This document shows, one piece after another, positions 3,981 to 31,485 of a DNA stretch of 64,000 nt; position 1 is the stretch's first letter; every line of letters begins with the position of its first letter. The position numbers and the translations under genes were made by a program. The DNA comes from a bacterium BMS3Abin06 (lineage in GTDB: Bacteria; Nitrospirota; Thermodesulfovibrionia; UBA6902). The stretch covers positions 4,644-68,643 of the forward strand of contig BDSY01000027.1 of the NCBI GenBank assembly GCA_002897895.1, read 5' to 3'. Under the pieces are notes generated by a model. That model was not told the origin of the DNA. It saw nothing but the letters and a program-made list of their open reading frames with translations, and searched no databases.

Positions 3981-3995
3981 GAAATTTAAAAACTT

Positions 3996-4943
3996 ATGGA
4001 GACGGGAATGTCGGAAACCCTGAAACAGATAAAACCGAAGCAGCACCACAATTACGTTGCATTCTTTCTGACCCTGGCATGCAATCTGCGCTGTCCCTAT
4101 TGCATCAATCTGCATGATGGTGGATTGCGATATAAAAAGGCAAAAAGAAGGCAGATGAAGGCAGATGACTGGATAAAGGCGGCAAACAGGCTGGTTCTGA
4201 GGGATGATCTGCCCCTTTCACTTCAGGGGGGCGAGGCAACCCTTTACAGGGACTTTTACAGGTTTGTTAATGAAGTGAAGGAAGAAATAAAAATGGATTT
4301 GTTGACCAACATGATGTTTGATGTCGATGAATTCATCAAAAATGTTCCGCTGTGGAGATTCACAAGGGAAGCGCCCTATGCAGCCATACGGGCCAGTTAT
4401 CATCCCGGTCAGAACAACATAGATGATCTGATTGAAAAGACCTGCAAACTTCAGGATGCCGGTTTCAGGATCGGGATTTACGGTATCGATCATCCGTCCA
4501 TTACAGATCATATTCTTGAGACAAAGGAAAGATGTCTGAAGCAGGGCATTGATTTCAGGACAAAAGAGTTTCTTGGAGAATGGGAAGACAAACTCTATGG
4601 GACGTTTAAGTATGAAGGCTCTGTGCGTGGAGATGAAATGAAACACCGCGAATGCAGAACTACTGAAATAATCGTGGATCCGGCAGGGTATGTATATAAA
4701 TGCCATTCAGACCTTTACAACGGAAGAAATCCTTTTGCCCATATACTGGATGATGACTTTAACGAGGACGAAATAGAAAAGTTCAGGCCCTGTGATTTTT
4801 ATGGTGACTGCAACCCATGTGATGTAAAGGTCAAGACAAACAGGTTCCAGATATTCGGCCATACGAGCGTGGAGATAAGGAACCTGAAAGACCTGATGGA
4901 AAATAAAAAAGTAAAGGAAATGCATTTAGCTGCAAAGGAATAA
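3996..4943 (+). CDS. Radical SAM protein with Cys-rich C-terminal (SPASM/twitch-like) region; start may be ATG 4008
   Basis: CNLRCPYC, LQGGEATL, C-terminal YKCH...CDFYGDCNPCD. Confidence 0.85.
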   Translation: METGMSETLKQIKPKQHHNYVAFFLTLACNLRCPYCINLHDGGLRYKKAKRRQMKADDWIKAANRLVLRDDLPLSLQGGEATLYRDFYRFVNEVKEEIKMDLLTNMMFDVDEFIKNVPLWRFTREAPYAAIRASYHPGQNNIDDLIEKTCKLQDAGFRIGIYGIDHPSITDHILETKERCLKQGIDFRTKEFLGEWEDKLYGTFKYEGSVRGDEMKHRECRTTEIIVDPAGYVYKCHSDLYNGRNPFAHILDDDFNEDEIEKFRPCDFYGDCNPCDVKVKTNRFQIFGHTSVEIRNLKDLMENKKVKEMHLAAKE

Positions 4944-6016
4944 TGGATAAGTATCTTATAGACAGTCATAAACTGCTCTGGCATCTCGACAGGGTCACAG
5001 AATGGCAGGACAAAAGGGTCATTGCACCTGTTTATATTGAGATCAGCCCGGTCTCATTCTGTAACCACAAATGTATCTTCTGCGGAATCGACTTTGCGAG
5101 AGACAAGGGCTTCAAGCTGGAGAGGGAGGCACTCTGTAAAAGACTTGAAGAAATGGGGAAGGCAGGTGTAAAGAGCGTAATGTTTGCCGGAGAAGGTGAG
5201 CCTTTATTGCATAAAGACCTGCCGGAATTTATCAGGACTGCAAGCAATGCCGGCATCGATGTTTCGGTAACAACAAACGGAACCTTGGGAAATTATGATT
5301 TATGGAAAGAGACACTCCCTCATCTTACCTGGATAAGATTCAGTGTGGATGCCGGAACTGCCGGGGTACATGCCAGGGTCCATAATGTTCCGGAAACTTT
5401 TTTTGAGAGGACAGTTGAGAGCATTGAACAGGCTGTCAAGGTAAAAAAGGTGCAAGGGCTTGATGTCACTGTAGGTGTTCAGTTTTTGATAATCGAGGAA
5501 AACCTGAATGATATTGAAAATGCCCTGAGCCTGTTTTCAGGACTTGGGGTTGATTACATAAGCCTTAAACCGTACTCCCTGCATCCACAGATGATAAAGA
5601 AAAAAGAGACCGTTTACACGGATGAAGTAATAAGACATATAGATGATGTAGTTGATGGGTACAGGAAGAACTCAGGTCTGAACATAATTTTCAGGAAAGA
5701 GGCGCTAAAGAAATATATGACTAAGATAAAAATGTTTAAACACTGCTCTGCTCTTCCATTCTGGGGATACATATCTTCAAAAGGCGATTTCTACACATGC
5801 AGTGTATTCATCGGCGATGAGAGATTTAAAACCGGGAACATTCATGAAAACAATATAGATCAGATTTTTTTCGGACAAAAAAGAAAGCAGTCAATACGAT
5901 ACGGAGAGGACGGACTGGTTATTAAAGAAGAGTGCAGACTGAACTGCAGAATGGCGCGGATAAACGAGTTCCTCGAAATTATTGAAAATAAGCCGGAGCA
6001 TGCAAACTTTATTTAG
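4943..6016 (+). CDS. Radical SAM/SPASM-type protein
   Basis: CNHKCIFC, FAGEGEPLL, WIRFSVDA, C-terminal C..LPF...GDFYTC...CRLNC. Confidence 0.9.
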   Translation: MDKYLIDSHKLLWHLDRVTEWQDKRVIAPVYIEISPVSFCNHKCIFCGIDFARDKGFKLEREALCKRLEEMGKAGVKSVMFAGEGEPLLHKDLPEFIRTASNAGIDVSVTTNGTLGNYDLWKETLPHLTWIRFSVDAGTAGVHARVHNVPETFFERTVESIEQAVKVKKVQGLDVTVGVQFLIIEENLNDIENALSLFSGLGVDYISLKPYSLHPQMIKKKETVYTDEVIRHIDDVVDGYRKNSGLNIIFRKEALKKYMTKIKMFKHCSALPFWGYISSKGDFYTCSVFIGDERFKTGNIHENNIDQIFFGQKRKQSIRYGEDGLVIKEECRLNCRMARINEFLEIIENKPEHANFI

Positions 6017-6024
6017 GAGGCCGT

Positions 6025-6990
6025 ATGGCTACAAAAGTACTCATAATTAAACTCGGTTATTCAGAGACACTGGACCAGGAGATAGGAAGGATTCCGAGCC
6101 TCGGGGATGTCCTTAGAACGACCCCGATCCTCTGGGGATTTAAAGAAAAGTATCCTGACAGTCATATAACATGGCTTGTTTCACGTGAAGCGGAACCACT
6201 GCTTACAGGCAACAAGTTCATTGACAGGCTAATGATATGGGATGAATTTGTTCCTTATCAACTGATGAGAGAAAAGTTTGATGTAATGGTAAACCTTGAA
6301 AAGATTCCGGGAGTATGTGCGCTGTCCGATATGATTGATGCATGGGTTAAATATGGATTCCGTTTTGAAAGTGTTAGCGGAACATACCATGCCTATGAGA
6401 AAGGTCTGAACTTCATTGAGTATATAAAAGATAAGCAGAACAGGAAAAAGAGCAAGGACCACTGGCAGCAGGTATTGATAGAAATGGTCGGTGTTAAGTG
6501 GAGGGGACAGGGTTATATCCTGGGATATGATCCCAGGTCTACAGAGAAATACGACATTGGATTTAACTACAATGTCGGAAAGAAATTTCAGACCAAGGCC
6601 ATGTCGATCGGGAAATGGAAAGCACTTGAAAGCAGTCTCGAAGAGCAGGGGTACAATGTATCATGGCAGGAAGGGTTAAAAGATCTTAATGATTATATTG
6701 AATGGATTAACTCCTGCAGACTTTTGATAACACAGGACAGTCTTGGGGTCCATATAGCCCTTGCCCTTAAAAAGAGGATGATAGGATTGTTCGGCCCCAC
6801 GGATGCACAGGAGATATACTTCCATAATTTCGGCAAGTCAATATATTCAAGGCAGGAGTGTCACCTTATGCATTGCTATAGTCCCACATGTTTGACTGGA
6901 TTGAACTGTATGGAATATCTGAATACGGATGAGATACTGAAAGCAGTCGATGAAATGCTCGGAGCAAAGAAGGTAAGTTTGGCAAATTAA
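6025..6990 (+). CDS. Glycosyltransferase family 9 (heptosyltransferase-like)
   Basis: SLGDVLRTTP, ITWLVS, ITQDSLGVHIALALKK..IGLFGPT. Confidence 0.85.
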   Translation: MATKVLIIKLGYSETLDQEIGRIPSLGDVLRTTPILWGFKEKYPDSHITWLVSREAEPLLTGNKFIDRLMIWDEFVPYQLMREKFDVMVNLEKIPGVCALSDMIDAWVKYGFRFESVSGTYHAYEKGLNFIEYIKDKQNRKKSKDHWQQVLIEMVGVKWRGQGYILGYDPRSTEKYDIGFNYNVGKKFQTKAMSIGKWKALESSLEEQGYNVSWQEGLKDLNDYIEWINSCRLLITQDSLGVHIALALKKRMIGLFGPTDAQEIYFHNFGKSIYSRQECHLMHCYSPTCLTGLNCMEYLNTDEILKAVDEMLGAKKVSLAN

Positions 6991-7148
6991 AAGGAGATTA
7001 CGAAAACATTTTAAACAAAACGTCATCCGATTGACATCTCCATCTCTAAAAAACTTTAAAACTAAGTGGTTAGCTTTGGCATGTATATTGCTTTTATGCC
7101 TTGCATGAGAAAAATATCTGTTCTGAAGTGCAAAGGTGAGTCAGCGTC

Positions 7149-7823
7149 ATGAGTTCAAATGTAAAAAGCGCTGTAAAGAATATTTTTAAATACCGGCATA
7201 TTATTTTCGATTTTGACGGAGTGCTGGCTGATACGAATCCGATACGGATTGAAGGATTCGCTAAACTCTTTAAAGAGTATCCCCCTGAGCAGGTGGATGA
7301 GATAATTGCGTTTGCCAACGCCAACGGCGGGCTTTCACGTTTCAAGAAAATCCGCTATTTCTTTAATGAGATCAGGAAGGAATCTTTGTCCAACAAAGAG
7401 CTCTCTGGCTGGGCTGAAAAATATTCCGATATCGTCAAACAGGATGTAATAAACGCGGAGGCAGTTGAAGGGGCTGTTGAATTCCTGACGGGATTTAACG
7501 AGTGTCACAACTTTGCTCTTATTTCCGGATCAGAAGAGCGGGAGCTTCGCGATGTATGCCGGCAGAGGAAGATCGACCGGTATTTTGTAATGATACTCGG
7601 ATCGCCTTCAACAAAGGAAGAGAACATTCATGAATTATTTAAACGTATGCCATGGCAAAAAGAAGAGAGTGTATTTGTCGGTGATTCGGTCAATGATTAC
7701 ACGGCAGCAAAGGCAGTAGGACTCGGTTTTATCGGCCGGAATTCAGGAATGACAGACTGGTCGGCTTACGGGGATGTGTATAGTTTTGATGATTTTAATG
7801 AATTGATAAGAAGAAAAGAATAA
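7149..7823 (+). CDS. HAD-family hydrolase/phosphatase
   Basis: FDFDGVLADT motif I, FVGDSVND motif IV. Confidence 0.9.
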   Translation: MSSNVKSAVKNIFKYRHIIFDFDGVLADTNPIRIEGFAKLFKEYPPEQVDEIIAFANANGGLSRFKKIRYFFNEIRKESLSNKELSGWAEKYSDIVKQDVINAEAVEGAVEFLTGFNECHNFALISGSEERELRDVCRQRKIDRYFVMILGSPSTKEENIHELFKRMPWQKEESVFVGDSVNDYTAAKAVGLGFIGRNSGMTDWSAYGDVYSFDDFNELIRRKE

Positions 7824-7840
7824 TTAAAAAGGAGCTTGGT

Positions 7841-8356
7841 GTGAGATCTGTAATAATAACTGCCCAGAATTTTCAGGATGAGGAATTAACGTATCCGTAT
7901 TACCGGCTTAAGGAAGAAGGGATTATAGTGGATGTGGCTACGCCGGACAAGATGGAGTGTTTCGGTAAATATGGTGTACCGGCACGGCCTACTGTTGATA
8001 CGAAGGACTTGAAGGCGGAAGATTATGACCTTGTGGTCCTGCCTGGTGGTTTTGAGGCGCCGGACCGTCTGAGGTTGCGCAAAGAGGTTCTTAAGTTTAT
8101 TAAGGACATGTATGAAGGCGGAAAGGTCGTTGCCGCGATCTGTCACGGGCCGTGGCTATGTGTTTCGGCCGGGATTTTAAAGGGCAAAAAGGCGACAGCT
8201 TTTCAGTCCATAGCTGATGATGTCCGAAATGCCGGGGCTGAATATCTTGACCGGGATGTTGTTGTGGATGGAAACCTTGTGACCTCGCCCCATTACAGGA
8301 ACAATGGGGATTTTATGAAGGCCACACTTAATTTGCTCAGAGTAAAAACAGAGTAA
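7841..8356 (+). CDS. DJ-1/PfpI family protein (type 1 glutamine amidotransferase-like)
   Basis: FQDEE, LPGG..APDRLR, AICHGPW. Confidence 0.9.
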   Translation: MRSVIITAQNFQDEELTYPYYRLKEEGIIVDVATPDKMECFGKYGVPARPTVDTKDLKAEDYDLVVLPGGFEAPDRLRLRKEVLKFIKDMYEGGKVVAAICHGPWLCVSAGILKGKKATAFQSIADDVRNAGAEYLDRDVVVDGNLVTSPHYRNNGDFMKATLNLLRVKTE

Positions 8357-8362
8357 GGGAAG

Positions 8363-10927
8363 ATGATATATTCAATTTTAGAACAGAAAAACATGGATGT
8401 TACATCAGAAGATGCGGGACCGTCGTCAGCCGAGGGTACTGATTATAACAATGTTATTGTCAAGAAGCCATGGGGATATGAGTACCTGGCTTTTGAGAAT
8501 GAACACGTAGCCATATGGATCCTTCAGCTTGTCCGTAAAAGAAAGACATCAATGCATTGCCACCCCAGAAAAAAGACTTCATTAATCCTCCTGCAGGGGC
8601 AGGCAGTATTTCATCATCTGGACGGCAATGTTTCTTTAGGGGACATGGATGGAGTTGTTATCAAAAATGGAGTTTTTCACTCGACAGAAGCTTATAATCC
8701 TCTGCCCATTACTCCACAATCCGAAAACGGAATATGGGTCATGGAGATTGAATCACCTCCTTATAAATCCGATCTTGTACGCATGCAGGATGCGTATGGA
8801 CGGGCAGGGACTGCTTATGAAGGATCGAGCCATATGGTGCAGGAACCCGAAAGTTACCTGCAGCTGCGGGTGCCGGATTCTTCAGAAGATCTAAAACAGA
8901 AGTTTTTTGACTGTATCTTTACTGTTCATAAAGGCGTCTTTGATAAAGAACTGCCGGCTGATGATGCTCTGATATCAGTGATTGCGCGCGGCGGGGAGAA
9001 TGGAAGTAAGAATCCGGCTTTTTCGGTAGGCGGGTTATCTGAATTCAGGGAATTCAGGAAGAGCGTGGAAAATGTGGACCTCGATGGATATGTTTTTTTG
9101 ATTATTGAAAAAGAGAAAAAGATCATGAGGACTGCTGACTATGTTTTTAACCGAATTGCCGAGTTAGGTGTGAAAGAAGTATTTGCAGTCTCGGGCGGCG
9201 GGGCCATGCATCTTGTGGATGCCGCAGGAAAAAACGAAGACATTAACTATGTCGCGGTCTACCATGAACAGGCAGCTGCCATGGCCGCGGAAGGATATGC
9301 ACGCATAACCGGTAAACCGGGAGTCACGCTCGTTACTTCAGGCCCTGGTGGTACGAATACCATTACCGGTCTCTGCGGGGCATGGATTGATTCAATACCG
9401 ACGATCTTTATTTCAGGACAGGTGACGACCAATACACTGCTGGAAGGGACCGGCCTCCGGCAGTTCGGCATTCAGGAATCAGACATTGTCAGTCTGGTTA
9501 AACCGGTCACAAAATACGCGGTGACAGTAAAAGATCCGGAGATGATCCGGTACCATATTGAAGAAGCGATCTATCATGCGACCAGTGGACGCCCCGGTCC
9601 TGTATGGCTGGACATCCCGCTTGATATTCAGAGCAGACTTATTAATCCCGATGAACTCAGACAGTTCAATCCCCATAGTAAATCTATCCGGGTAGTTTCG
9701 GATGATCTTAAGGGGAAGGTGTCTAAGTGTATAGATTTAATAAAGAAAGCTGAAAGGCCAGTTGTAATCAGTGGTTATGGGATAAGGCTTTCGCATGGAG
9801 AAGAGGAATTTATCCGGTTAGTTGAAATGATAGGGGCGCCTGTTATTTCTTCATGGACGAGCAGCGATTTAATCCCGTCCGATCATGATCTCTATATCGG
9901 GCGCAGCGGGATCATGGGAGACAGGGCCGGTAACTTTACTGTCCAGAATGCTGACCTGCTGCTGGTCATTGGATCAAGGATGTCGATCCCCCAGGTTGGT
10001 TACAACTTCAAGGTATTTGCACGGGAGGCCAAAAAGATAGTTGTAGACATTGACAGGGCCGAGCTTGAAAAGGAGTCGCTCCGGACTGACCTCCCGATCC
10101 AGAGTGACGCAAAGGAATTCATTGAGGAATTGATAAGACAGTTGGAAGAATCAGGCGCAGAGGCCGGATCTCGGAGCTGGCTTGATCAATGCAGAAAGTG
10201 GAAAGAGAAATATCCGGTTGTCCTGCCTGAATATGAAGGCAATGAAGATGCAGTGAACTCATTTTATTTCGTGGATCTGCTTTCGAAGAAGCTCGATAAG
10301 GATGCGGTCATTGTTACGGACATGGGGACAAGTTTTACCTGTACCATGCAGACATTCAAAATCAAAGCGGAGCAGAGGCTCTTTACTTCAAGCGGCCACG
10401 CATCCATGGGTTTCGGACTGCCAGGGGCAATAGGGGCATGCTTCGCGCACGGGAAGAAGACTATATGCATTAGCGGTGACGGAGGTCTCCAGATGAACAT
10501 CCAGGAATTTCAGACACTGGTCCAGTATAAACTGCCGGTCATCCTGTTTGTCTTGAATAATCAGGGGTATCTCACAATTAAATTAATGCAGCAAAATCAT
10601 TTTGGCAGATATGTTGGATCTGATCCGTCCAGCGGAGTCGGAACCCCGGATATTGTAAAGATTGCTCAGGCTTATGGAATTAAAGCGGATCGCATTGCAG
10701 ACCATAAAGAATTAAATCAGAAGATTGATTCCATCCTTGCGGAAGATGGCCCGTTTGTATGTGAGGTGATGATGCCGCCGGAACAGCAGTTGATTCCGAG
10801 GGTTTCTTCCCTGAAAAAACCTGACGGAACTATTATTTCAAAACCACTGGAAGATTTATACCCATTTCTGGACAGAGAAGAATTTCTGGAAAATATGATT
10901 GTGAAACCGGTGGAACCGCTAAAGTGA
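8363..10927 (+). CDS. Fusion of N-terminal cupin domain and ThDP-dependent acetolactate-synthase-like enzyme
   Basis: KPWGYEY...SMHCHP...FHST cupin. HEQAAAMAAEGY, TSGPGGTN, GRPGPVWLDIP, GDGGLQMN...NNQGY ThDP motif. Confidence 0.85.
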   Translation: MIYSILEQKNMDVTSEDAGPSSAEGTDYNNVIVKKPWGYEYLAFENEHVAIWILQLVRKRKTSMHCHPRKKTSLILLQGQAVFHHLDGNVSLGDMDGVVIKNGVFHSTEAYNPLPITPQSENGIWVMEIESPPYKSDLVRMQDAYGRAGTAYEGSSHMVQEPESYLQLRVPDSSEDLKQKFFDCIFTVHKGVFDKELPADDALISVIARGGENGSKNPAFSVGGLSEFREFRKSVENVDLDGYVFLIIEKEKKIMRTADYVFNRIAELGVKEVFAVSGGGAMHLVDAAGKNEDINYVAVYHEQAAAMAAEGYARITGKPGVTLVTSGPGGTNTITGLCGAWIDSIPTIFISGQVTTNTLLEGTGLRQFGIQESDIVSLVKPVTKYAVTVKDPEMIRYHIEEAIYHATSGRPGPVWLDIPLDIQSRLINPDELRQFNPHSKSIRVVSDDLKGKVSKCIDLIKKAERPVVISGYGIRLSHGEEEFIRLVEMIGAPVISSWTSSDLIPSDHDLYIGRSGIMGDRAGNFTVQNADLLLVIGSRMSIPQVGYNFKVFAREAKKIVVDIDRAELEKESLRTDLPIQSDAKEFIEELIRQLEESGAEAGSRSWLDQCRKWKEKYPVVLPEYEGNEDAVNSFYFVDLLSKKLDKDAVIVTDMGTSFTCTMQTFKIKAEQRLFTSSGHASMGFGLPGAIGACFAHGKKTICISGDGGLQMNIQEFQTLVQYKLPVILFVLNNQGYLTIKLMQQNHFGRYVGSDPSSGVGTPDIVKIAQAYGIKADRIADHKELNQKIDSILAEDGPFVCEVMMPPEQQLIPRVSSLKKPDGTIISKPLEDLYPFLDREEFLENMIVKPVEPLK

Positions 10928-12489: not shown

Positions 12490-12493
12490 AAAC

Positions 12494-12560
12494 AATTAAG
12501 AATTATGAATTACGAATGAAGGAAAAATAATTACGAATCAAAGATTCGTAATTCGTAATT
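12494..12560. repeat. AATTACG-type heptamer array with 11-bp hairpin
   Basis: aattaag-aattatg-aattacg-aat; aattacgaatc-aaa-gattcgtaatt-cgtaatt. Confidence 0.75.
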
Positions 12561-12579
12561 GATTTTAAAGGAGGTTGTT

Positions 12580-14022: not shown

Positions 14023-14031
14023 GAGACGCGT

Positions 14032-14814
14032 ATGGGAAAAGTCCAGTTTGGCCTGGAAGATAAAGGCGTTCTCATTACAGGCGCCTCAAAAGGATTAGGG
14101 GCTGTATGCGCGGGTGCGCTGAGTGAAGAAGGGGCGCGTCTGGTCCTGATGGCCCGCTCAGGAGACAGGCTTGAAGAGGTGCGGAAGAATTGCAGGGACA
14201 GAGACAGACATTTGAGTATTGCCCTGGACCTGTGTGATATGCAGGCGCTTGAAAGTGCGGTGAAAAAAGCAGAGGAGTTTCTGGGTGATATTGATGTTGT
14301 CCTGCATGTTGCCGGCGGCGGCCTGGGTATGCGTGATCCATTGTTAAGTGCGGATGAGTTCTTTAAATTGTTTTCGCTTAATGTTGCCGCGTCTGTACAG
14401 ATCAATAAAATGGTTGCCCCTAAGATGATGGAAAGAAAACAGGGAAACCTCGTTCATGTCTGTTCCATTTCATCAAGTGAAGCAACCGGTTCTGTTGGTT
14501 ACAACACTGTCAAGGCGGCTCTGGCCGCATATGTGCGCTCTCTGGGACGGGAGATTGCGGGATCAGGTGTTGTGGCAACAGGTATCCTGCCCGGTGGTTT
14601 TTATGCGCCGGAAAATGCGTTTGCCCGATTGAAAGAAAGAAATCCGGAAGGGTTTAAAGACTTTGTTGAAAGACGTCTCCCACGCAAAGTTATCGGAAGA
14701 GCAGAAGAGCTTGTCCCGATGATACTTCTATTATCTTCTGAAGCAGCATCCATGATGGGCGGGTGTCTGGTCCCTATTGATGCAGGTGAAGGATTGAATT
14801 TTATAACGTCATGA
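14032..14814 (+). CDS. SDR-family oxidoreductase
   Basis: TGASKGLG, YNTVK (YxxxK). Confidence 0.9.
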   Translation: MGKVQFGLEDKGVLITGASKGLGAVCAGALSEEGARLVLMARSGDRLEEVRKNCRDRDRHLSIALDLCDMQALESAVKKAEEFLGDIDVVLHVAGGGLGMRDPLLSADEFFKLFSLNVAASVQINKMVAPKMMERKQGNLVHVCSISSSEATGSVGYNTVKAALAAYVRSLGREIAGSGVVATGILPGGFYAPENAFARLKERNPEGFKDFVERRLPRKVIGRAEELVPMILLLSSEAASMMGGCLVPIDAGEGLNFITS

Positions 14815-16694
14815 TAGAAACTGAAACAATGATCCCGGTGGTCAGTCACGAGAACGCTGAATTTGATAACAGCAAACTGGAAGCGTATGTACGGGAGCTG
14901 CGCCGGAAGTTTCATCTGAACAACCGGCTTCTTCTGGTGCAGACCCTTCAGTTTCAATTAGACGCGTTTAATATCGAGGTAGCACGTAATCGGGGATACT
15001 ATGCATATCCTCCGGCAGGGCTGCAGTGTTTAGTCAAGGCTTTGAAAGACCAGGGGCTTGAGATCGAGATACTGGACCTGAATTATGAACTGCTGAAAAG
15101 GGTTATCGAGGATGAAACATTTGATCATACGGATTGGCTCACTATTCTGGATGAAACACTTGAGCGGTTTGGGCCGACCATGGTGGGTGTAACCTGTATA
15201 GGAGTGGCCGCGCAATTATCAAAACCTTCACATCCTCTGACTGGTGTCCTGAGGCATCTTGCGGAAAAAAATAAATATGTACTTATGGCAGGTGGGCCGA
15301 TCGCGACTGATGAGAAGTATGGGTATCTTTTTGAAGAACTCTGTCATTTTGTTGTTGAGAGTGAAGGAGAAAATAAAATCAATGTTCTTATAGATCATCT
15401 TCTGGATAAAGAAGAGAAGCATAAGCCAACACCCGGTATCTGTTTTAAATATGAAGGTGAATTTGAACAGTCCCGGGGGGCGGAGGATAAAGTGAGAGTC
15501 GAAGGGAATTTGATTGATTATTACAAATACCCGATTGCTGATTATTGCAGGGCTGGTTCCCTGAATCCTTTTTCGAGAATGGCAGGGCAGGATGTGCCGT
15601 TTGCCTCGATCCAGTTGAACAGGGGGTGCCGCTCCAACTGCCGGTTTTGCGGAGTCACAAAGTTTATGGGACCCGGTGTGCGTCAGGCGCCGGTGCAAGC
15701 TGTTTATAATGAAATAGTTTATCTTGTAGAAGAGAAGGGCATCAGGCATTTTGAACTCCTTGATGATGATTTTTTCGGTCCGCCGGGACTTCGAGCAGGA
15801 GTTAATGAATTGTTGGGCAACATGTGTAAATTAAAGGAAACGTATGGCATAAGCTGGTCAGCCGGAAACGGTTTGATCGCAGGTTCTATTGATGACAATC
15901 TCATGCAGTTAATTCATGACTCGGGCTGCATAGGTTTTCGCATAGGGATCGAGTCGGGAAATACGGAGATCCTGGAAAAAATGCGCAAACCCGCATCTGT
16001 CAAATCTATAAAAACGTTTGCATCAAAGACAAAGGATTATCCGGACATGTTTGTGAGTGCGAATTATATTATCGGCTTATACGGTGAAGAGACCTTCGGA
16101 CAGATGATGGATACTTATCGCATGTCATGTGAACTGGACCTTGATTGGTCATCGTATTCGACATTTCAGTTTTCGAGCAAATCAACGAGCAGGATCGAGG
16201 GATTGAGAGATGATGATAAGGGCGCCACTGAATGTATTCCGAGCAAAGACAGTGTATCCCGTGAGATCACAAGGAAAGAAGGTCTCCTCTCTGGCGCTGA
16301 GATATTTAATATCCCGGAGGAGACGGTTCCTTCAAGGGAGCAGGTGATAGAGATATGGTACACCTTTAATTTCCTTTCGAATTATATCTATAACAAAAAC
16401 CTCAGACCCGGAGGGAACCACCGAAAACTCGTTTCATGGATAAAGGCTCTCCAGTTGACCTATCCGAATAACGCATATATGCCGCTTTTTACAGGATTGG
16501 GATATGTCCTCTGTAATGATCCGGAAAAGGCTAAAGAAGAGCTTGAGAAAACAAAAACAAATATAAGGCATTCAGAGGAAGCCGCGTCACGGTTCGCAGA
16601 GTTTCACCTGACAGGCCTGGTCGATGACTTTCCGTCTGAAAAGGAAGAAGTTTATCAGCGTCTGGAAGAAATTGGAAAGAGATTTCCTCATTGA
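14811..16694 (+). CDS. Cobalamin-binding radical SAM protein
   Basis: YPPAGLQCL, AGGPIAT, RGCRSNCRFC, LLDDDF, GIESGN. Confidence 0.85.
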   Translation: MIETETMIPVVSHENAEFDNSKLEAYVRELRRKFHLNNRLLLVQTLQFQLDAFNIEVARNRGYYAYPPAGLQCLVKALKDQGLEIEILDLNYELLKRVIEDETFDHTDWLTILDETLERFGPTMVGVTCIGVAAQLSKPSHPLTGVLRHLAEKNKYVLMAGGPIATDEKYGYLFEELCHFVVESEGENKINVLIDHLLDKEEKHKPTPGICFKYEGEFEQSRGAEDKVRVEGNLIDYYKYPIADYCRAGSLNPFSRMAGQDVPFASIQLNRGCRSNCRFCGVTKFMGPGVRQAPVQAVYNEIVYLVEEKGIRHFELLDDDFFGPPGLRAGVNELLGNMCKLKETYGISWSAGNGLIAGSIDDNLMQLIHDSGCIGFRIGIESGNTEILEKMRKPASVKSIKTFASKTKDYPDMFVSANYIIGLYGEETFGQMMDTYRMSCELDLDWSSYSTFQFSSKSTSRIEGLRDDDKGATECIPSKDSVSREITRKEGLLSGAEIFNIPEETVPSREQVIEIWYTFNFLSNYIYNKNLRPGGNHRKLVSWIKALQLTYPNNAYMPLFTGLGYVLCNDPEKAKEELEKTKTNIRHSEEAASRFAEFHLTGLVDDFPSEKEEVYQRLEEIGKRFPH

Positions 16695-16700
16695 GATAAT

Positions 16701-18770
16701 GTGATGAACGATAACAAAACAAAAAAAGGGATCTATATAGCTCAATTCGGGACAGGATCAACTATTAACCTTCTGCCTCTGGCTGCGGGGCTTCTCGTCT
16801 CACGTTTGAAAGAGGAGAAGGAGTTTTTAAAAAAATATCATCTTGGGGAGATTATTTTTCAAAGGCCGGATAACCCTGAAGAGTTCGTTGCGTCCCTCAG
16901 GGAAGTATTCGTAATGGGTTTATCATTTTCGCTCTGGAATATGAACATTAATTTTACCATTGCCGGAGAGGTAAGGAAAATGTTCCCTGATGCCTTAATT
17001 GTCGGGGGTGGTCCCTCGATTGCCAAGGACCCGGAACTGGTAGATGCCTTTTTTAAAGAACATCCTTATATTGATGTAATTGCGGCCGGGGAGGGTGAGG
17101 AAGCGTTTGTCTCTTTATGCAAACATCATGATGAGGGCAGGAGTTTTGACGATATACCGGGGATCATTTATCGTAACCGGAAAACAGGTGAAGTCCATTA
17201 CGGCCGGCCGGATGAGATACTGCAGATGGAGAAGCTGCCGTCTCCTTTTCTGGACGGGACGTTTGATGACCTGTATGAAAAGTACCATGATGTGTTCTCC
17301 GGAATGATCTGGGAAACCAACCGTGGATGTCCGTTTACATGCTCGTACTGCACGTGGGGTAACTATTCTTCAAGAAAGATACGGATGAATTCCATGGAGC
17401 GTATACGAAGCGAAGTGGAGTGGATCGGGAAAAATAATATCGGCTATATTGCTATGAGTGACGCGAATTTCGGAATTAAAGCACGCGATGTCGAGATAGC
17501 AGGCATGCTGGCTGAATGTAAGAAGAAGTATGGTGTGCCGAATTTCATCTCGGTCAGTTGGGTAAAGAATATAGCGGACAGGGTCCTTCAGATATCGGAT
17601 ATTTTAAAGACTGCCGGGATAGGGTTCCGGGTTACCATGGCGCTGCAGAGCCATAATGAAGATGTTGTTGAGGCGGTGAATCGAAAGAATGTAAAGAAGA
17701 GTACGTTCACCAGGATCAAGGACGTTTACCATTCGCAGAGGCTTTATTCCTATACTGAACTGATACTGGGTCTGCCGCTTGAGACGTATGAATCATTTGT
17801 TTCAGGAGTTGAGAAGAGTTTAAGTGAGAGTGTGTTTGATCAGGTCTATATTTACCCCTGTTTTCTTTTTCCGAACACGCAGCTTTCTTCCCCCCGGAGT
17901 ATTGAGCGGTACGGGATAAAGAGCAAAGAGACAGCCGGCGGATATACCAAAAGCAAGGGTTCTTCAAAGATCGGGGAGAAGATGGATATTGTTGTCGGGA
18001 CAGATGCCATGCCAATGGAAAAATGGGTTGATTCGTTTGTAGAAGGATATTTTATGACAGGGCTGCATGATGACCGCCTGGCTTTTTTTGTGTTCCAGTA
18101 TCTGAAGAAAACATTCGGGATAAAGGTGAAGAATATTATTGTGTTTATGCGCGGGAGAAGCTCGCCGGACAGAACACCGCTTATCAGCAGGGAGTTTAGA
18201 AGGATCGAAAGGACCGCAGAAAATGTCCAGTCTCACGGGGAGTCGCACCTAATGGAGCTTCCTGACTATGGCGGGATTATCTATGACTCGCCGGATGCAG
18301 TTTTTCTGGACCTGCTGTATAAACGCGATGCGTTCTATATAGAGATGCAATCGCTGGTTGAGATGTATCTTAATGAAGCGCAGGTGGGATTTGATCAGAC
18401 AAAGCTGGATGACCTGTTCATTTTTCAAAAGGCGGTCATGGCGCATCCGGACGGCCCTGGCGCTGACGCGGTCGATTTACAGTATGACTGGATAAAGTAT
18501 TTCCGGTTTGCCTTTAATTATGCTGAGGAACCTCTTCAGGAGAAGACAGACCGATTACAGATTATTGATACTGCTCCTTCTGATGGAGACGGAGAACAAT
18601 TCTTAAAGAACCATTTTAATGTGCGGGGTGAACCGGCATTTAATCTTTTGGTGGATGAAGATGGGACGATTGTGTTCCCGTCTGTTTTGATTACGCGTAC
18701 CGGTGGCAGGGAATATTCCGGGGAAGAAAGAAAGTTTAATGATAAAAGAGTAAAGGAACTTGTTGGATAG
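16701..18770 (+). CDS. Cobalamin-binding radical SAM protein with long C-terminal extension
   Basis: LPLAAGLL, VGGGPS, GEGEEAF, ETNRGCPFTCSYC, SDANFG, ELILGLPLET. Confidence 0.85.
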   Translation: MMNDNKTKKGIYIAQFGTGSTINLLPLAAGLLVSRLKEEKEFLKKYHLGEIIFQRPDNPEEFVASLREVFVMGLSFSLWNMNINFTIAGEVRKMFPDALIVGGGPSIAKDPELVDAFFKEHPYIDVIAAGEGEEAFVSLCKHHDEGRSFDDIPGIIYRNRKTGEVHYGRPDEILQMEKLPSPFLDGTFDDLYEKYHDVFSGMIWETNRGCPFTCSYCTWGNYSSRKIRMNSMERIRSEVEWIGKNNIGYIAMSDANFGIKARDVEIAGMLAECKKKYGVPNFISVSWVKNIADRVLQISDILKTAGIGFRVTMALQSHNEDVVEAVNRKNVKKSTFTRIKDVYHSQRLYSYTELILGLPLETYESFVSGVEKSLSESVFDQVYIYPCFLFPNTQLSSPRSIERYGIKSKETAGGYTKSKGSSKIGEKMDIVVGTDAMPMEKWVDSFVEGYFMTGLHDDRLAFFVFQYLKKTFGIKVKNIIVFMRGRSSPDRTPLISREFRRIERTAENVQSHGESHLMELPDYGGIIYDSPDAVFLDLLYKRDAFYIEMQSLVEMYLNEAQVGFDQTKLDDLFIFQKAVMAHPDGPGADAVDLQYDWIKYFRFAFNYAEEPLQEKTDRLQIIDTAPSDGDGEQFLKNHFNVRGEPAFNLLVDEDGTIVFPSVLITRTGGREYSGEERKFNDKRVKELVG

Positions 18771-18790
18771 TTTCCGGAGAGGGACCAGTA

Positions 18791-19489
18791 ATGAGAGAAT
18801 TTAATGCGTTAAGAGTTTATCCTCAGCCTTCAAAACCGCGTTATGTCGGTAAGCATATTCGTACGATCCATAACCGTATCATTGCGTCTTACAGGGGGGA
18901 GGAATACTACGACGGAGACCGTAACAACGGGTATGGCGGGTTCAAGTATGACGGGCGATGGAAAAAGATCGTTGACTCCATGCGCAAAGATTACGGCATA
19001 GACGAAAACACAAAGATATTGCAGCTGGGATGTGAAAAAGGATTTCTATTGCATGATTTTAAGGAGAAGTTTCCTGGTATGAATATCCGTGGTTATGAAA
19101 TGGGCGGGTATCCGGTTGATAATGCGATGCCGTCGGTAAAGGAGTTTATTGATCAGGGCGAATATAAAAAATTGCCATACATGGACAATCAATTTGATTT
19201 TGTGATTGCTATAGGGGTCATTTATACTTTAACCCTGGCAGATGCCATCTCTTGCATTAAGGAGATTCAGAGAGTCGGCAAGGGAAAAAGTTTTATTACA
19301 TTAGGATCTTATCGTGATGATGAGGAACAGAAGCTGTTTAACATGTGGACTGTTCTGGGCTCAACGATCCTGCACGTGGATGACTGGACCGAGGTGCTGA
19401 AACATGCCGGGTATACCGGCGACTATCTTTTCACCACCTCCGGGTATCTGAATTTAGTTGAGGTGAATGAAGGGGTGACTGAATTGTGA
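18791..19489 (+). CDS. Class I SAM-dependent methyltransferase
   Basis: ILQLGCEKGFLL motif I, LPYMDNQFDFV; YDGDRNNGYGGFKYDGRW N-terminal motif. Confidence 0.85.
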   Translation: MREFNALRVYPQPSKPRYVGKHIRTIHNRIIASYRGEEYYDGDRNNGYGGFKYDGRWKKIVDSMRKDYGIDENTKILQLGCEKGFLLHDFKEKFPGMNIRGYEMGGYPVDNAMPSVKEFIDQGEYKKLPYMDNQFDFVIAIGVIYTLTLADAISCIKEIQRVGKGKSFITLGSYRDDEEQKLFNMWTVLGSTILHVDDWTEVLKHAGYTGDYLFTTSGYLNLVEVNEGVTEL

Positions 19490-19566
19490 AAGAATCCGGA
19501 CGTGGAGTGAAAACTGTTAAACCGGCAGATTACGTAAATATTTATTTTTAGTGAAAGGGACACCGA

Positions 19567-20637
19567 ATGGGTATTTTATACACGAAGATGAAGATATTTC
19601 ATTATAAAGACAAAATAGAGTCGCTGAATATGAATACGGATAAAATAATGCCGCCTGTCCATATAAGGATAAAACCGACAAATGTATGCCCACATAACTG
19701 CCGTTATTGCGCTTACCGGGCGGACAATCTGCAACTTGGCAAAGATATGCGTCTGGCAGATTATATACCGAAAAAAAGAATGATGGAAATCATAGATGAT
19801 ATTGTGGAAATGAGAGTCAAAGCCGTAACTTTCAGTGGGGGAGGCGACCCTTTTTACTACCCTTATTTACTCGATACGGTCAGGAAACTCTCAAAGACAC
19901 CGGTGAAATTTGCATCTCTAACAAATGGAGCAGGGCTTAATGGTGAGGTTGCAGAGATTTTCGCACATAAAGGTACCTGGCTCAGGATTTCCATGGATGG
20001 ATGGGATAATGAGAGTTACTCTTTTTACAGGAAGGTGCCGGAAGGGGAGTTTACAAAAGTAATGAATAATATGGAGGATTTCAAGAAACTCGGAGGCGGA
20101 TGCTTCCTCGGAGTCAGCCTGATCGTTGACAGGAAGAATTCAGATCATGTTTTCGATTTTATCCGCAGGCTTAAAGAGATCGGAGTGGACAGTGTAAAGG
20201 TTTCTCCCTGCATTGTAAGCAATGACGGAGAAGCTAATAACGAATATCACCGGCCTGTATTTGAAAAAGTAAAAGAACAGATGAAGAGCGCAATGGAAGA
20301 TATGGATGATAAGGACTTCGAGATCTTTGACGCTTATCACGAACTGGATAATAAATTCATTAAAGAATATACCTGGTGTCCCTATCTGCAGATTTTGCCT
20401 GTAATAGGGGCTGATCTTAACATATATCCCTGCCAGGACAAGGCATATAATCTGGAAGAGGGACTTGTCGGTTCGATTAAAGATCAAAGTTTCAGGGATT
20501 TCTGGTTTAATGACAAGAACAAGTTTTACAAAATAAACCCTTCAATTGTCTGTAATCACCACTGTGTGGCTAATACAAAAAACAAAATAGTACTGGAGTA
20601 TCTGGATACGGATAAAGAACATATGGGGTTTGTTTGA
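19567..20637 (+). CDS. Radical SAM/SPASM-type protein, paralogue of 4943-6016
   Basis: CPHNCRYC, FSGGGDP, WLRISMDG, C..LQILPVIGADLNIYPC...CNHHC. Confidence 0.9.
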   Translation: MGILYTKMKIFHYKDKIESLNMNTDKIMPPVHIRIKPTNVCPHNCRYCAYRADNLQLGKDMRLADYIPKKRMMEIIDDIVEMRVKAVTFSGGGDPFYYPYLLDTVRKLSKTPVKFASLTNGAGLNGEVAEIFAHKGTWLRISMDGWDNESYSFYRKVPEGEFTKVMNNMEDFKKLGGGCFLGVSLIVDRKNSDHVFDFIRRLKEIGVDSVKVSPCIVSNDGEANNEYHRPVFEKVKEQMKSAMEDMDDKDFEIFDAYHELDNKFIKEYTWCPYLQILPVIGADLNIYPCQDKAYNLEEGLVGSIKDQSFRDFWFNDKNKFYKINPSIVCNHHCVANTKNKIVLEYLDTDKEHMGFV

Positions 20638-20732
20638 GTGAGAGGCTCATTTTAAAGAAAGGATAGAGTTTAATCATGCTTAAATTAAAAGAACGACCAC
20701 GTGAAAAATATCCTTACTATTCGAGTAAATCA

Positions 20733-21749: not shown

Positions 21750-21816
21750 ACTTGATTGTGTTCAATTGTGATAGCTGTTAAGGCTTATGTTTTTTTAAAA
21801 AAAGGATAGATATTTT

Positions 21817-22350: not shown

Positions 22351-22355
22351 ATCAT

Positions 22356-31480: not shown

Positions 31481-31485
31481 ATTTA

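Follow-up and report, generated by a model that had tools for sequence, protein, structure and literature searches.

Six radical SAM genes of an uncultured Nitrospirota bacterium (genome 2.98 Mb, G+C 43.1%) form a single co-directional, tightly packed block, which is flanked by legI (neuB) on one side and legG (neuC) on the other and sits within a Leg/Maf/fliC island. The surrounding 22-kb accessory block (3996-25990) probably constitutes a unit for the biosynthesis and transfer of a second, extensively modified sugar destined for flagellin. This sugar would most likely be C-branched and C-methylated, and in this organism possibly sulfated. The first-pass annotation, which had proposed an undescribed radical route to a C-methylated, deoxygenated or branched surface sugar, is partly supported in its overall interpretation.

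In the window, i.e. the entire 64,000-nucleotide stretch of DNA analysed, all six ORFs announced as CX3CX2C proteins were recovered (Table 1). They are intact and operon-like on the + strand, each contains exactly one CX3CX2C motif, and all exceed the Pfam gathering score of PF04055 (Radical_SAM; 29.5 bits), reaching 37.8 (rS1), 73.4 (rS2), 79.6 (rS3), 45.2 (rS4), 36.2 (rS5) and 74.7 bits (rS6). The first possible start of rS3 is 12559, while the alternative at 12580 is an in-frame GTG seven codons downstream. Junctions at 4943, 10924/10927, 14811/14814 and 16694/16701 overlap or measure 6-20 bp. The whole genome holds 57 Radical_SAM matches, and since the Poisson probability of six such genes in 16.6 kb is about 1e-6 per interval of that size and about 2e-4 genome-wide, their clustering is not due to chance. 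The interleaved GT9-like, ThDP, SDR and methyltransferase genes lie where they had been described, and the proposed flagellin-glycosylation setting is confirmed by LegB/C/H/I, NeuC/PtmE/NeuA, Maf and fliC/flaG/fliD/fliS; rather than being scattered housekeeping genes, the six are part of a sugar-building block tied to flagellin. Five of the six proteins stay below the NCBIfam cut-off of every characterised enzyme, the exception being rS3, and the literature searched yielded neither a paper that connects flagellin or nonulosonate islands with radical SAM enzymes nor a published product of the cassette, in agreement with its designation as undescribed. A seventh radical SAM gene (43925-45220, - strand), encoding B12-binding and DUF4070 domains, is located beyond the range of the earlier annotation.

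Table 1. Features of the locus, with positions in the window.
Feature	Position	Strand	Basis
legB-, legC-, legH-, legI(neuB)-like genes	35-3824	+	GDP_Man_Dehyd/Epimerase, DegT, PglD_N+Hexapep, NeuB+SAF (Pfam)
rS1, small radical SAM enzyme, module A anchor	3996-4943	+	CNLRCPYC residues 29-36; PF04055
rS2, radical SAM with SPASM/twitch domain	4943-6016	+	CNHKCIFC residues 40-47; SPASM 24.4 bits
GT9-like (heptosyltransferase-family) glycosyltransferase	6025-6990	+	PF01075 39.4 bits vs cut-off 22
Sigma-54-type promoter-like site, GT9-HAD gap, module B start	7077-7092	+	TGGCAT-N5-TTGCT
HAD-IA phosphatase	7149-7823	+	PF13419 75.5 bits
DJ-1/PfpI-family protein	7841-8356	+	PF01965 168 bits; TIGR01382 165.8 bits vs cut-off 139
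Cupin/YerE-like ThDP carboligase fusion	8363-10927	+	three TPP_enzyme domains
UxaA/GarD-family sugar-acid dehydratase	10924-12489	+	GD_AH_C 286 bits, GD_AH_second 121 bits
rS3, HemN-type two-SAM radical SAM enzyme	12559-14022	+	CKTQCWYCQC at residue 87; CX3CX2C residues 87-94
Classical SDR ketoreductase, candidate YerF-like side-chain reductase	14032-14814	+	adh_short 120.7 bits
rS4, divergent B12-binding-type radical SAM	14811-16694	+	CRSNCRFC residues 273-280
rS5, TokK/CysS/KedN5-like cobalamin-type radical SAM C-methyltransferase (putative)	16701-18770	+	CPFTCSYC residues 210-217
Class I SAM methyltransferase (MT)	18791-19489	+	Methyltransf_31/11/25
rS6, radical SAM, four C-terminal Cys	19567-20637	+	CPHNCRYC residues 41-48; PF04055
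Pyruvate-kinase (PK) barrel protein, APS kinase, sulfotransferase	20676-23854	+	PF00224, PF01583, PF00685
695-aa glycosyltransferase, C-terminal GT-B-like domain	23903-25990	+	Glyco_trans_1_2 72 bits
Perfect sigma-54 consensus upstream of legG/neuC	27184-27199	+	TGGCAC-N5-TTGCA
legG(neuC)-, ptmE-, legF(neuA)-like, GFO/IDH/MocA oxidoreductase, class III aminotransferase	27336-32805	+	Epimerase_2, CBS+NTP_transferase, CTP_transf_3, GFO_IDH_MocA, Aminotran_3 (Pfam)
TPR protein + Maf (MptE-like + Maf_flag10_N + TPR), flagellin nonulosonate transferase	32853-37588	+	
Flagellin (fliC), 623 aa	37979-39850	+	Flagellin_N, Flagellin_C, Flagellin_IN

Comparison of gene content resolves the six enzymes into two nested modules, module A comprising rS1-rS2-GT9 ... 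MT-rS6 and module B comprising HAD, DJ-1, cupin-YerE-like ThDP, UxaA, HemN-like rS3, SDR, rS4 and TokK/CysS-like rS5. Of the single six-enzyme pathway originally envisaged, the sugar block stood, but its unity did not, as the two modules are separable and recombine among relatives. The rS1 family numbers 2110 homologues in Nitrospirota, Geobacteraceae (including the cultured Citrifermentans bremense), Desulfuromonadaceae, Planctomycetes and Scalindua, with identities of about 70% between phyla. Among 38 metagenome loci anchored on rS1, each of at least 12 kb, GT9 accompanies it in 37, rS2 in 33, MT in 18 and rS6 in 17, and a thiamine enzyme follows in 26 (split transketolase in 20, YerE-like in 6). 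The order rS1-rS2-GT9-split transketolase-MT-rS6 recurs in C. bremense (L114) as well as in a Planctomycetes-type contig (L115). A Desulfuromonadales MAG encodes counterparts of ThDP (67% identity), UxaA (54%), MT (52%), rS6 (54%), SDR (56%), rS4 (44%), rS5 (50%) and the HemN-like protein (37%), and the same set of genes recurs in L087, L088 and L089. In addition, relatives carry sugar genes for NUDIX, RmlD-like reductase, HldE-like, SIS (GmhA-like) and CMP-sugar synthetase proteins. By its distribution, the cassette is accessory, since the Leg genes of the relative G317 are not interrupted by radical SAM genes and, among 301 genomes sampled from the phylum, only 1 possesses an rS5 orthologue and 6 possess rS1. 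Module B was probably acquired horizontally, as it is confined to the host genome in this sample. With regard to the claim of a new system, the literature searched contained no description of it, but other genomes have it too: on comparative grounds, the cassette is widespread and recurrent in many, mostly anaerobic lineages.

Within module A, rS1 reached no NCBIfam cut-off and matched no PDB sequence. Its invariant cysteines (alignment A2) are 21/25/28 and 172/212/228/258/264/267, with the conserved C-terminal cluster probably corresponding to an auxiliary Fe-S cluster; Foldseek matched its AF2 model (pLDDT 65) to CteB, anSME, viperin and PqqE at a TM of about 0.5. The start of rS2 overlaps the rS1 stop, and its nearest solved structure is the cytosylglucuronate decarboxylase BlsE (46.8 bits). 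A distant paralogue of rS2 (22% identity), rS6 has orthologues in the loci mentioned above that are 53-78% identical (C. bremense 65%, L115 72%). The GT9-like protein, which matches heptosyltransferase NCBIfam models below cut-off only, shares 78% identity with its counterpart in G305 and 66% with that in G179, and MT orthologues share 51-52% identity in YerE-type and 31-37% in transketolase-type loci.

The carboligase of module B (residues 255-845) is fused to a mannose-6-phosphate-isomerase-like cupin (about residues 30-250) and finds its best PDB match, at 466.6 bits compared with 298 for acetolactate synthase, in JanthE (8rph), a YerE-like aldehyde-ketone carboligase (PMC12188165). This places the ThDP enzyme among those of the branched-chain-sugar type, in support of the branched product proposed in the first-pass annotation. 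The cupin domain shows a weak cupin match in the PDB (E = 0.017), and its stand-alone homologues match Pfam Cupin_2 or MannoseP_isomer and are named likewise by JGI. In the YerE-type variant, the HAD gene is invariably located ahead of those for DJ-1 and the ThDP enzyme; its product is not a GmhB equivalog. The UxaA-type enzyme scores 218 bits against galactarate dehydratase 6u7l but misses the equivalog cut-off (270 vs 731 bits), and SDR orthologues in cassette loci are 54-57% identical. A characterised non-glycan subgroup, which according to the first-pass annotation would speak against its reading, is nominally reached by rS3, which passes the HemN equivalog TIGR00538 (407.7 bits vs cut-off 325) and scores 283 bits against E. 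coli HemN (1olt) compared with 65 against NocN; the other five reach none. However, none of 25 relatives has an rS3 orthologue (best identity 23-35%), and in other phyla the gene accompanies the cassette, a HemN-like gene adjoining the rS5 orthologue in L004, L087, L088 and L089; on these comparisons, rS3 is not the housekeeping HemN. In rS4, the B12-binding domain (27.1 bits) falls under the 32.1 cut-off and the PhpK subfamily model (cut-off 600) gives 68 bits, while orthologues in L001, L003 and L004 are 40-48% identical. The B12-binding domain of rS5 is also below the Pfam cut-off, and these low scores count against the favoured reading of the cassette. Homologues of rS5 occur in many lineages (44-60% identity), one of them (P0098) being fused to an NDP-sugar epimerase/reductase domain.

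Around the block, legBCHI make up the first half of the Leg-type nonulosonate pathway and are conserved together with rS1-rS2-GT9 in G305, G179, L123, L124, L127 and L128, while the second half includes NeuC/PtmE/NeuA (27336-30393). Downstream follow Maf (34772-37588) and fliC, flaG, fliD and fliS (37979-43479). The PK barrel protein, devoid of its C-terminal domain, the APS kinase (apsK 133.7 bits, slightly below the 138.7 cut-off) and the sulfotransferase, in a segment of lower G+C (39%), are a candidate PAPS supply and sulfation module and are absent from the cassette in the other loci compared. The variable block is closed by the 695-aa glycosyltransferase, 44% and 48% identical in G305 and G179 at the same pre-neuC position. 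In G179, synteny is complete (LegBCHI-rS1-rS2-GT9-variable block-GT-NeuC-PtmE-NeuA-TPR-Maf-FliC-FliD-FliS), the TPR protein and Maf being 53% and 51% identical in conserved order. A sigma-28-like site (37732-37758; TAAAG-N14-tCCGATAA, one mismatch) precedes flagellin, and the site at the start of module B deviates by one mismatch from TGGCAC-N5-TTGCW. The number of sigma-54 matches in the window equals chance expectation, yet both are intergenic and on the coding strand.

The co-occurrence with fliC that the annotation had suggested examining is evident: a distance of 4-34 kb separates flagellin and cassette in all eight genomes with both genes on one contig (host, G001, G305, G322, G323, G324, G127, G179), spanning Nitrospirota, Desulfuromonadales, Geobacteraceae and Sedimentisphaerales, whereas a random locus would be expected so close in an estimated few percent of cases per genome (2-5 Mb, 2-4 flagellin-family genes). 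This argues against an improbable reading, in which the product has nothing to do with flagella but is a small molecule or a surface glycan (for LPS, an S-layer or pili, for example) and the island merely serves as a hot spot for horizontally acquired sugar genes. Consistent with that reading are the mosaic G+C (module B 45-49%, PK-to-GT segment 33-39%, against the genomic average) and a second, Wzx/polymerase-type polysaccharide locus on host contig C111 with six further radical SAM genes; the cassette, unlike that locus, lacks flippase, polymerase and undecaprenyl-phosphate transferase. Two Nitrospirota genomes with an rS1 homologue (53% identical), GT9 and rS2-like genes contain no flagellin gene, and therefore the cassette is not strictly flagellin-specific; likewise, none of the 38 metagenome loci has flagellin within its 10-kb flanks.

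It is rather unlikely that the block instead tailors the Leg-type nonulosonate, by reworking CMP-Leg or a precursor or by installing an unusual N-acyl group in place of acetyl, so that Maf would transfer a single modified nonulosonate and no second sugar. Insertion exactly between legI and legG, contiguity of LegB/C/H/I-rS1-rS2-GT9 in G305, G179, L123, L127 and L128, the class III aminotransferase (31486-32805), the sugar-acid nature of both nonulosonates and UxaA-family substrates, and the likeness of ThDP, SDR and dehydratase to the acetolactate synthase/reductoisomerase/dihydroxy-acid dehydratase logic for a new 2-keto acid would all suit such a role. However, cassettes adjacent to flagellin occur without NeuB (none in G323, a weak partial match only in G001), or with NeuB 450 kb away (G127) or on other contigs (G324, G322), and the conserved GT9-like and further glycosyltransferases point to a separate transfer step; the Leg-tailoring route as such did not hold. 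Peptide maturation is the activity for which SPASM/twitch radical SAM enzymes are best known, and rS1, rS2 and rS6 are structurally nearest to this group (hits include CteB, anSME, PqqE and SkfB), many members of which act on peptides. RiPP-like C-methylation, epimerisation or cross-linking of flagellin or another protein by some or all of the enzymes is nonetheless very improbable: TPR-bearing proteins nearby could dock on flagellin, and methylation of flagellin by an Fe-S enzyme, FliB, occurs in Salmonella (PMC8598068), but genes for a precursor peptide or a RiPP recognition element were not seen, the radical SAM proteins here lack TPR or docking domains, GT9, ThDP sugar-type enzymes, NDP-sugar epimerases and NUDIX are constant companions, and TokK, CysS and BlsE, the nearest solved relatives of rS5 and rS2, act on small molecules.

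For the proposed second sugar on flagellin, to which the glycosyltransferases interleaved with the cassette genes provide a link, one possible precursor is a nucleotide sugar of the heptose type. Against this scheme, neither a nucleotidyltransferase nor a sugar kinase is encoded in the block, and the host genome has no full HldE-like gene of the L003/L087 type. The cupin may isomerise, the HAD phosphatase dephosphorylate and the UxaA-type enzyme dehydrate an intermediate, to whose carbonyl the ThDP enzyme, replaced at the same position by split transketolase in most relatives, would add a C2 (or longer) unit to build the carbon skeleton. Oxidative decarboxylation of a carboxyalkyl side chain, or methyl/methylene transfer, is conceivable for rS3, O- or N-methylation for the class I methyltransferase, and, restricted to this genome, sulfate addition by APS kinase and sulfotransferase. 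Transfer of the product to flagellin, directly or atop the Leg-type sugar added by Maf, would fall to the GT9-like enzyme and the 695-aa glycosyltransferase. In line with the C-methylation proposed in the first-pass annotation, rS5 is nearest to the iterative cobalamin C-methylases TokK (7kdx, 273 bits) and CysS (9n1b, 177 bits; KedN5 subfamily 249 vs cut-off 700), and together with rS4, perhaps, it may methylate sp3 carbons, possibly repeatedly. The SDR would reduce the new side-chain ketone, a reaction performed by YerF in yersiniose synthesis, while rS1, rS2 and rS6, as twitch/SPASM-type enzymes, may catalyse redox-neutral or oxidative steps at unactivated sugar carbons (dehydrogenation, deoxygenation, epimerisation or decarboxylation), for which BtrN, DesII, AprD4, NeoN and BlsE are the known radical SAM counterparts.

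A block of 22 kb, which carries six radical SAM genes (rS1 to rS6, numbered in gene order), interrupts a legionaminic-acid-type (Leg) operon, and the locus as a whole is a flagellin glycosylation island with an uncharacterised, widespread radical SAM/ThDP sugar cassette. The genes of the block, part of a long plus-strand run in the window, are intact, and their junctions overlap or span a few bases. Each of the six radical SAM ORFs encodes a single CX3CX2C motif, and PF04055 matches of 36.2-79.6 bits lie above the gathering score of 29.5 in all six, which bears out the count of six such enzymes in the first-pass annotation. Since the genome of BMS3Abin06, a Nitrospirota MAG of 2.98 Mb in 112 contigs with 43.1% G+C, contains only 57 Radical_SAM matches, the occurrence of six of these genes within 16.6 kb (chance of approximately 2e-4 genome-wide) constitutes clustering far beyond chance. 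Its PlsX and NeuB fall into 90%-identity clusters whose members include proteins with the name 'Nitrospirae/Nitrospirota bacterium'. In addition, a complete nonulosonate pathway, a Maf transferase and flagellin are combined in a single locus, as in Maf-type islands, and in a genome of the same class (G179) the entire island from LegB to FliS follows the same order around a different variable middle. The initial assignment of the region to flagellin glycosylation is thereby upheld.

Gene content of the island in the window
Feature	Coordinates	Strand	Remark
LegB/C/H/I	35-3824		upstream half of split Leg operon
rS1	3996-4943	+	radical SAM
rS2	4943-6016	+	radical SAM
GT9-like glycosyltransferase	6025-6990	+	
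HAD phosphatase	7149-7823	+	
DJ-1/PfpI protein	7841-8356	+	
ThDP enzyme	8363-10927	+	854 aa
UxaA/GarD-type dehydratase	10924-12489	+	
rS3	12559-14022	+	radical SAM, HemN-like
SDR	14032-14814	+	
rS4	14811-16694	+	radical SAM, divergent, putative B12-binding type
rS5	16701-18770	+	radical SAM, TokK/CysS-like
Class I methyltransferase (MT)	18791-19489	+	
rS6	19567-20637	+	radical SAM
Pyruvate-kinase barrel protein without C-terminal domain, APS kinase, sulfotransferase	20676-23854	+	G+C ~39%
695-aa glycosyltransferase	end 25990	+	last gene of the block
NeuC, PtmE, NeuA, oxidoreductase, aminotransferase	27336-32805		downstream half of Leg operon
TPR protein, then Maf, fliC, flaG, fliD, fliS	3' of the 27336-32805 genes		

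The set of pyruvate-kinase barrel protein, APS kinase (133.7 bits, slightly below the cut-off of 138.7) and sulfotransferase is missing from the cassette elsewhere, which suggests a glycan sulfation restricted to BMS3Abin06. The gap between neuB and rS1 (3828-3992) holds inverted arrays of GGCACAAA-like octamers with repeated gaaatttaaaaa on the flanks and resembles a short repeat element that has been inserted. At the other end, the stretch that separates the variable block from neuC contains a gene for a Uma2-family endonuclease (26336-26878), which may represent a recombination joint; a 94%-identical fragment adjoins other Leg-like genes in a genome of the same genus (G302:C14). Just after fliS lies a seventh radical SAM gene (43925-45220, minus strand), BchE/HpnJ-like with B12-binding and DUF4070 domains, which has paralogues in the same genome (73% identical on C47, 43% on C44) and is probably unrelated to the cassette. 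Moreover, the genome contains a second glycan locus (C111:2250-24358) encoding a Wzx-like flippase, a polymerase-like membrane protein, several glycosyltransferases and a GT9-like protein together with six further radical SAM enzymes, four of them SPASM-like and two of B12 type. The bacterium seems to place radical SAM enzymes in its surface-glycan loci habitually.

Three of the six enzymes, rS1, rS2 and rS6, are small proteins and candidate members of the SPASM/twitch subgroup. For rS2, the SPASM domain is recognised by PF13186 (24.4 bits, cut-off 21.5), and the top solved match is the sugar-acid decarboxylase BlsE with 46.8 bits. rS6 is a paralogue of rS2 (22% identical), featuring four C-terminal cysteines and no SPASM match. 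In the case of rS1, no NCBIfam cut-off was reached and neither a PDB sequence match nor a Pfam SPASM match was obtained; six cysteines outside the SAM-cluster motif are invariant among 27 homologues. An AF2 model of rS1 (pLDDT 65) placed the enzyme next to CteB, anSME, viperin and PqqE at a TM score of ~0.5; these neighbours are generic SPASM/twitch enzymes and yielded no functional assignment.

The putative B12-type enzymes rS4 and rS5 both match PF02310 with 27.1 bits, under the threshold of 32.1. rS5 aligns with TokK over residues 23-475 (273 bits) and with CysS over residues 65-480 (177 bits), and scores 249 bits against the KedN5 model NF033712, under its threshold of 700. As judged from these similarities, rS5 is a relative of the KedN5/TokK/CysS clade outside the curated subfamily. 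TokK and CysS are iterative, cobalamin-dependent methylases of sp3 carbons; TokK and ThnK act on carbapenems and CysS on cystobactamid, and GenK and GenD1 are sugar methylases of the gentamicin pathway. rS5 homologues of 44-60% identity are common in metagenomes, and in one of them (P0098; L003 7089-9932) an NDP-sugar epimerase/reductase domain (RmlD/GDP-Man-dehydratase-like) is naturally fused to the rS5 orthologue, a clue that the substrate may be a nucleotide sugar. rS4 (PF04055 45.2 bits) has PhpK as its nearest curated family (68 bits versus 600) and a top PDB match of just 39.6 bits, and by sequence is a divergent, putatively B12-binding enzyme.

rS3 surpasses the HemN equivalog model TIGR00538 (407.7 bits versus a cut-off of 324.95), has full HemN length, displays the CX3CX2CXC motif as CKTQCWYCQC, and scores 283 bits against HemN but just 65 against NocN, which puts it much nearer to the former. 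The possibility that it is the organism's own housekeeping HemN was nevertheless rejected, because 25 genomes, related at the level of genus, family or order, lack an orthologue and give HemW-sized top matches of 23-35% identity. The sole other relative within the genome is 27% identical, no heme genes were found near rS3, whose neighbours are glycan genes, and four lineages unrelated to one another have a HemN-like gene adjoining their rS5 orthologue.

The partners of these six enzymes are of sugar type. YerE is a ThDP-dependent enzyme that adds a two-carbon branch to a CDP-4-keto sugar in the yersiniose A system, in which YerF is the reductase. The ThDP enzyme of the block, which comprises the TPP_enzyme_N, _M and _C domains, scores 466.6 bits against JanthE (PDB 8rph), a YerE-like aldehyde-ketone carboligase (PMC12188165), versus 298 for the top acetolactate synthase, and by domains and similarity it is assigned to the YerE-like carboligases. 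A distinct domain spans its first 250 residues and was identified as a putative PMI-like cupin by a weak PDB profile match and by stand-alone homologues, which have Cupin_2/MannoseP_isomer Pfam matches and bear names such as 'mannose-6-phosphate isomerase-like (cupin)'; an AF2 model of this domain was unusable (pLDDT 42, three sequences). The adjacent UxaA-type dehydratase is a relative of galactarate/altronate dehydratases that scores under the equivalog cut-off.

As to the precursor, a heptose-type nucleotide sugar is a candidate, to which the GT9 gene points, as do HldE-like and SIS genes that flank the cassette solely in two relatives (L003 and L087). The heptose precursor is kept as no more than a candidate because the window contains neither GmhA nor HldE, the genome holds no full HldE-like gene and has its SIS-domain matches on other contigs, and the HAD protein is not a GmhB equivalog; of an ADP-heptose/GT9 system, the window thus has the GT9-like gene alone.

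Beyond the window, the cassette is modular and conserved across phyla. Module A (rS1-rS2-GT9 and, further along, MT-rS6) encloses module B, which comprises HAD, DJ-1, the cupin-fused YerE-like ThDP enzyme, UxaA, rS3, SDR, rS4 and rS5. rS5 as a single query detected no relative on the genome contigs; an rS5 alignment retrieved, among the matches listed, one true orthologue and many paralogues of 25-33% identity. On contig C70 of G001, a Desulfuromonadales MAG (L004), the order is ThDP enzyme (67% identical), UxaA (54%), MT (52%), rS6 (54%), SDR (56%), rS4 (44%), an extra B12 radical SAM gene, rS5 (50%), a HemN-like gene (37%) and a further radical SAM gene of B12 type, with FkbM/TPR/GT41 proteins and flagellin 9 kb beyond the cassette. 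In L087 and in L088 (Sedimentisphaerales) this gene set is present with HAD and DJ-1 ahead of a ThDP enzyme of ~830-850 aa, L087 being flanked by genes for HldE-like, SIS and CMP-sugar synthetase proteins, and L089 contains the module B core, its upstream end truncated inside a ThDP enzyme of ~846 aa. Two giant proteins adjoin the cassette in such loci: one of 2243 aa on G001:C70 (L084 11300-18031, minus strand), with five module copies that are each 36-43% identical to the TPR protein of the window (32853-34775), and a TPR/GT2/Gtf3-like glycosyltransferase of 3202 aa in L088 (14950-22034).

Module A is anchored by rS1, the family of which is larger still and yields 2110 matches at ~70% identity from Nitrospirota, Geobacteraceae, Desulfuromonadaceae, Planctomycetes and Scalindua. 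In Citrifermentans bremense (L114), rS1, rS2 and GT9 are followed by a split transketolase, MT and rS6, with an SDR further along; a Planctomycetes-type contig (L115) has the same genes with the order of rS2 and GT9 exchanged and an epimerase and a NUDIX gene further along. A census of 38 metagenome loci, each anchored on rS1 and at least 12 kb long, found GT9 in 37, rS2 in 33, MT in 18 and rS6 in 17 of them. Since 20/38 contain the split transketolase and 6/38 the set of HAD, DJ-1, YerE-like ThDP enzyme and UxaA, a ThDP enzyme that forms C-C bonds occupies the same slot in 26/38, in two alternative forms. By gene content, the window corresponds to the rarer YerE-type form with rS3, rS4 and rS5 as an add-on.

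Among 301 sampled Nitrospirota genomes, rS5 has an orthologue in BMS3Abin06 alone and rS1 in six. A genome of the same family (G305) has kept NeuB-rS1-rS2-GT9 (75-78% identical) and MT-rS6-GT, and at the position of module B it has a split transketolase, together with four radical SAM genes of other kinds. G+C content is slightly high in module B (45-49%) and low from the pyruvate-kinase gene to the last glycosyltransferase gene (33-39%). The differing middles in relatives, the rarity and the G+C content therefore argue for a swappable, partly horizontally acquired insert.

The position of the block inside a Leg operon could indicate that the cassette tailors Leg itself. However, carriers without NeuB exist: no true NeuB was found in G323 and just a weak partial match in G001, and the gene is 450 kb distant in G127, whereas G322 and G324 have it on contigs other than that of the cassette. 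The Leg-specific reading was down-weighted for this reason and is rather unlikely. A flagellin-family gene, on the contrary, shares a contig with the cassette at a distance of 4-34 kb in eight genomes, namely BMS3Abin06, G001, G305, G322, G323, G324, G127 and G179. Hence, the cassette is flagellin-associated in most carriers and does not require the nonulosonate pathway. This proximity also weighs against a surface glycan unrelated to flagella, for which one might cite G025 and G092, which combine 53%-identical rS1 with GT9 and rS2-like genes and have no flagellin gene; we regard such a product as improbable. In G242, flagellin and cassette are on separate contigs. Modification of the flagellin polypeptide by the radical SAM enzymes sits poorly with the sugar-type partner enzymes and is very improbable. 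Leg can also occur by itself: on contig C61 of G317, a genome of the same order, a plain Leg-type locus (L111/L112) has zero radical SAM genes, and as the genome has no flagellin gene, Leg probably serves another surface structure in this lineage.

With respect to regulation, a perfect sigma-54 consensus (27184-27199, plus strand) is found in the gap before neuC and a sigma-54-type site with one mismatch (7077-7092, plus strand) in the gap between the GT9 and HAD genes. The number of such sites in the window equals chance expectation and is not suggestive in itself; their placement, both being intergenic and on the coding strand, may be. The best sigma-28-like site of the window (37732-37758, plus strand) has one mismatch and precedes fliC by 220 bp, and together these sites hint that the island may be wired into the flagellar regulon.

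On balance, we favour, with moderate confidence, the reading that the cassette is accessory and provides flagellin with a second sugar that is heavily tailored. Its individual chemical steps are conjecture. The ThDP enzyme would add a C2 or longer unit to the carbonyl of a sugar intermediate, with isomerisation, dephosphorylation and dehydration contributed by the cupin, HAD and UxaA-type enzymes, and the SDR would reduce the side-chain ketone. rS1, rS2 and rS6 could perform chemistry at unactivated sugar carbons, rS5 and perhaps rS4 might catalyse C-methylation, and rS3 decarboxylation or methylation. MT and the sulfotransferase would decorate the sugar, and GT9 and the 695-aa glycosyltransferase would transfer the finished product.

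More tentatively, the core of rS1-rS2-GT9-ThDP-MT-rS6, whose rS1 family exceeds 2000 homologues from five or more bacterial phyla, cultured Geobacteraceae included, may be a route to a sugar class not yet described. The ThDP enzyme would extend or branch the skeleton, three radical SAM enzymes with predicted auxiliary clusters would then modify it, and add-on modules (TokK-like, HemN-like, sulfation) would diversify it; bacterial protein glycosylation, here of flagellin, could thus gain its first pathway that depends on radical SAM enzymes. Flagellin glycans influence motility, filament assembly, phage recognition and immune detection, and to our knowledge the sugars known from them so far (Pse, Leg and their simple derivatives) are made without radical enzymes. 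If the proposal is true, radical sugar chemistry reaches from antibiotic pathways into the mainstream cell-surface biology of anaerobes, and new sugar structures are predicted that are C-branched, C-methylated and possibly sulfated. For enzymologists, the cassette provides a number of very strongly conserved, uncharacterised radical SAM families, rS1 being ~70% identical across phyla, and because the canonical, transketolase-type cassette resides in the cultured C. bremense (DSM 12179), where it shares a contig with a flagellin gene, the question is directly testable.

Among known systems, the island resembles the Maf-type Leg/Pse islands of Campylobacter jejuni, Aeromonas caviae and Clostridium botulinum in its LegB/C/H/I/G/F-like genes, a PtmE-like guanylyltransferase, a Maf protein with an MptE-like domain and the adjacent fliC-flaG-fliD-fliS, but differs in the interruption of its Leg operon by six radical SAM genes together with GT9 and a YerE-like ThDP enzyme. 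We know of no radical SAM enzyme in the characterised Pse and Leg pathways, and a full-text search of the literature available without subscription returned no paper tying radical SAM enzymes to flagellin/nonulosonate islands or to a cassette with GT9, transketolase or YerE. The yersiniose A system (YerE/YerF, JanthE) is approached by a ThDP domain far nearer to JanthE than to acetolactate synthases and by an SDR kept in the cassette, whereas here the carboligase is cupin-fused, stands beside HAD, DJ-1 and UxaA among radical SAM enzymes and is replaced by a split transketolase in most relatives. With the ADP-heptose pathway (GmhA, HldE, GmhB) the cassette shares a GT9-family transferase, the most constant partner of rS1; GT9 heptosyltransferases include the protein O-heptosyltransferases TibC and AAH.

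Small size and putative auxiliary-cluster cysteines are shared with BlsE, BtrN, DesII, AprD4 and NeoN, radical SAM enzymes that serve sugar and aminoglycoside pathways, and rS2 has a SPASM/twitch domain, but the resemblance is confined to the radical SAM core and no curated family threshold is reached; function is not transferable from them. rS3 is like HemN and the class C methyltransferases ChuW, NosN and NocN in motif, length and TIGR00538 score, yet unlike HemN it lacks heme-gene context and orthologues in relatives and is tied to rS5 orthologues in four lineages. Finally, rS5 aligns over ~450 residues with TokK and CysS, and rS4 probably shares the layout of B12-binding and radical SAM domains with the systems of TokK/ThnK, CysS, KedN5 and GenK/GenD1; here, however, these enzymes reside in a protein-glycosylation island instead of an antibiotic cluster, and an orthologue fused to an NDP-sugar epimerase exists.
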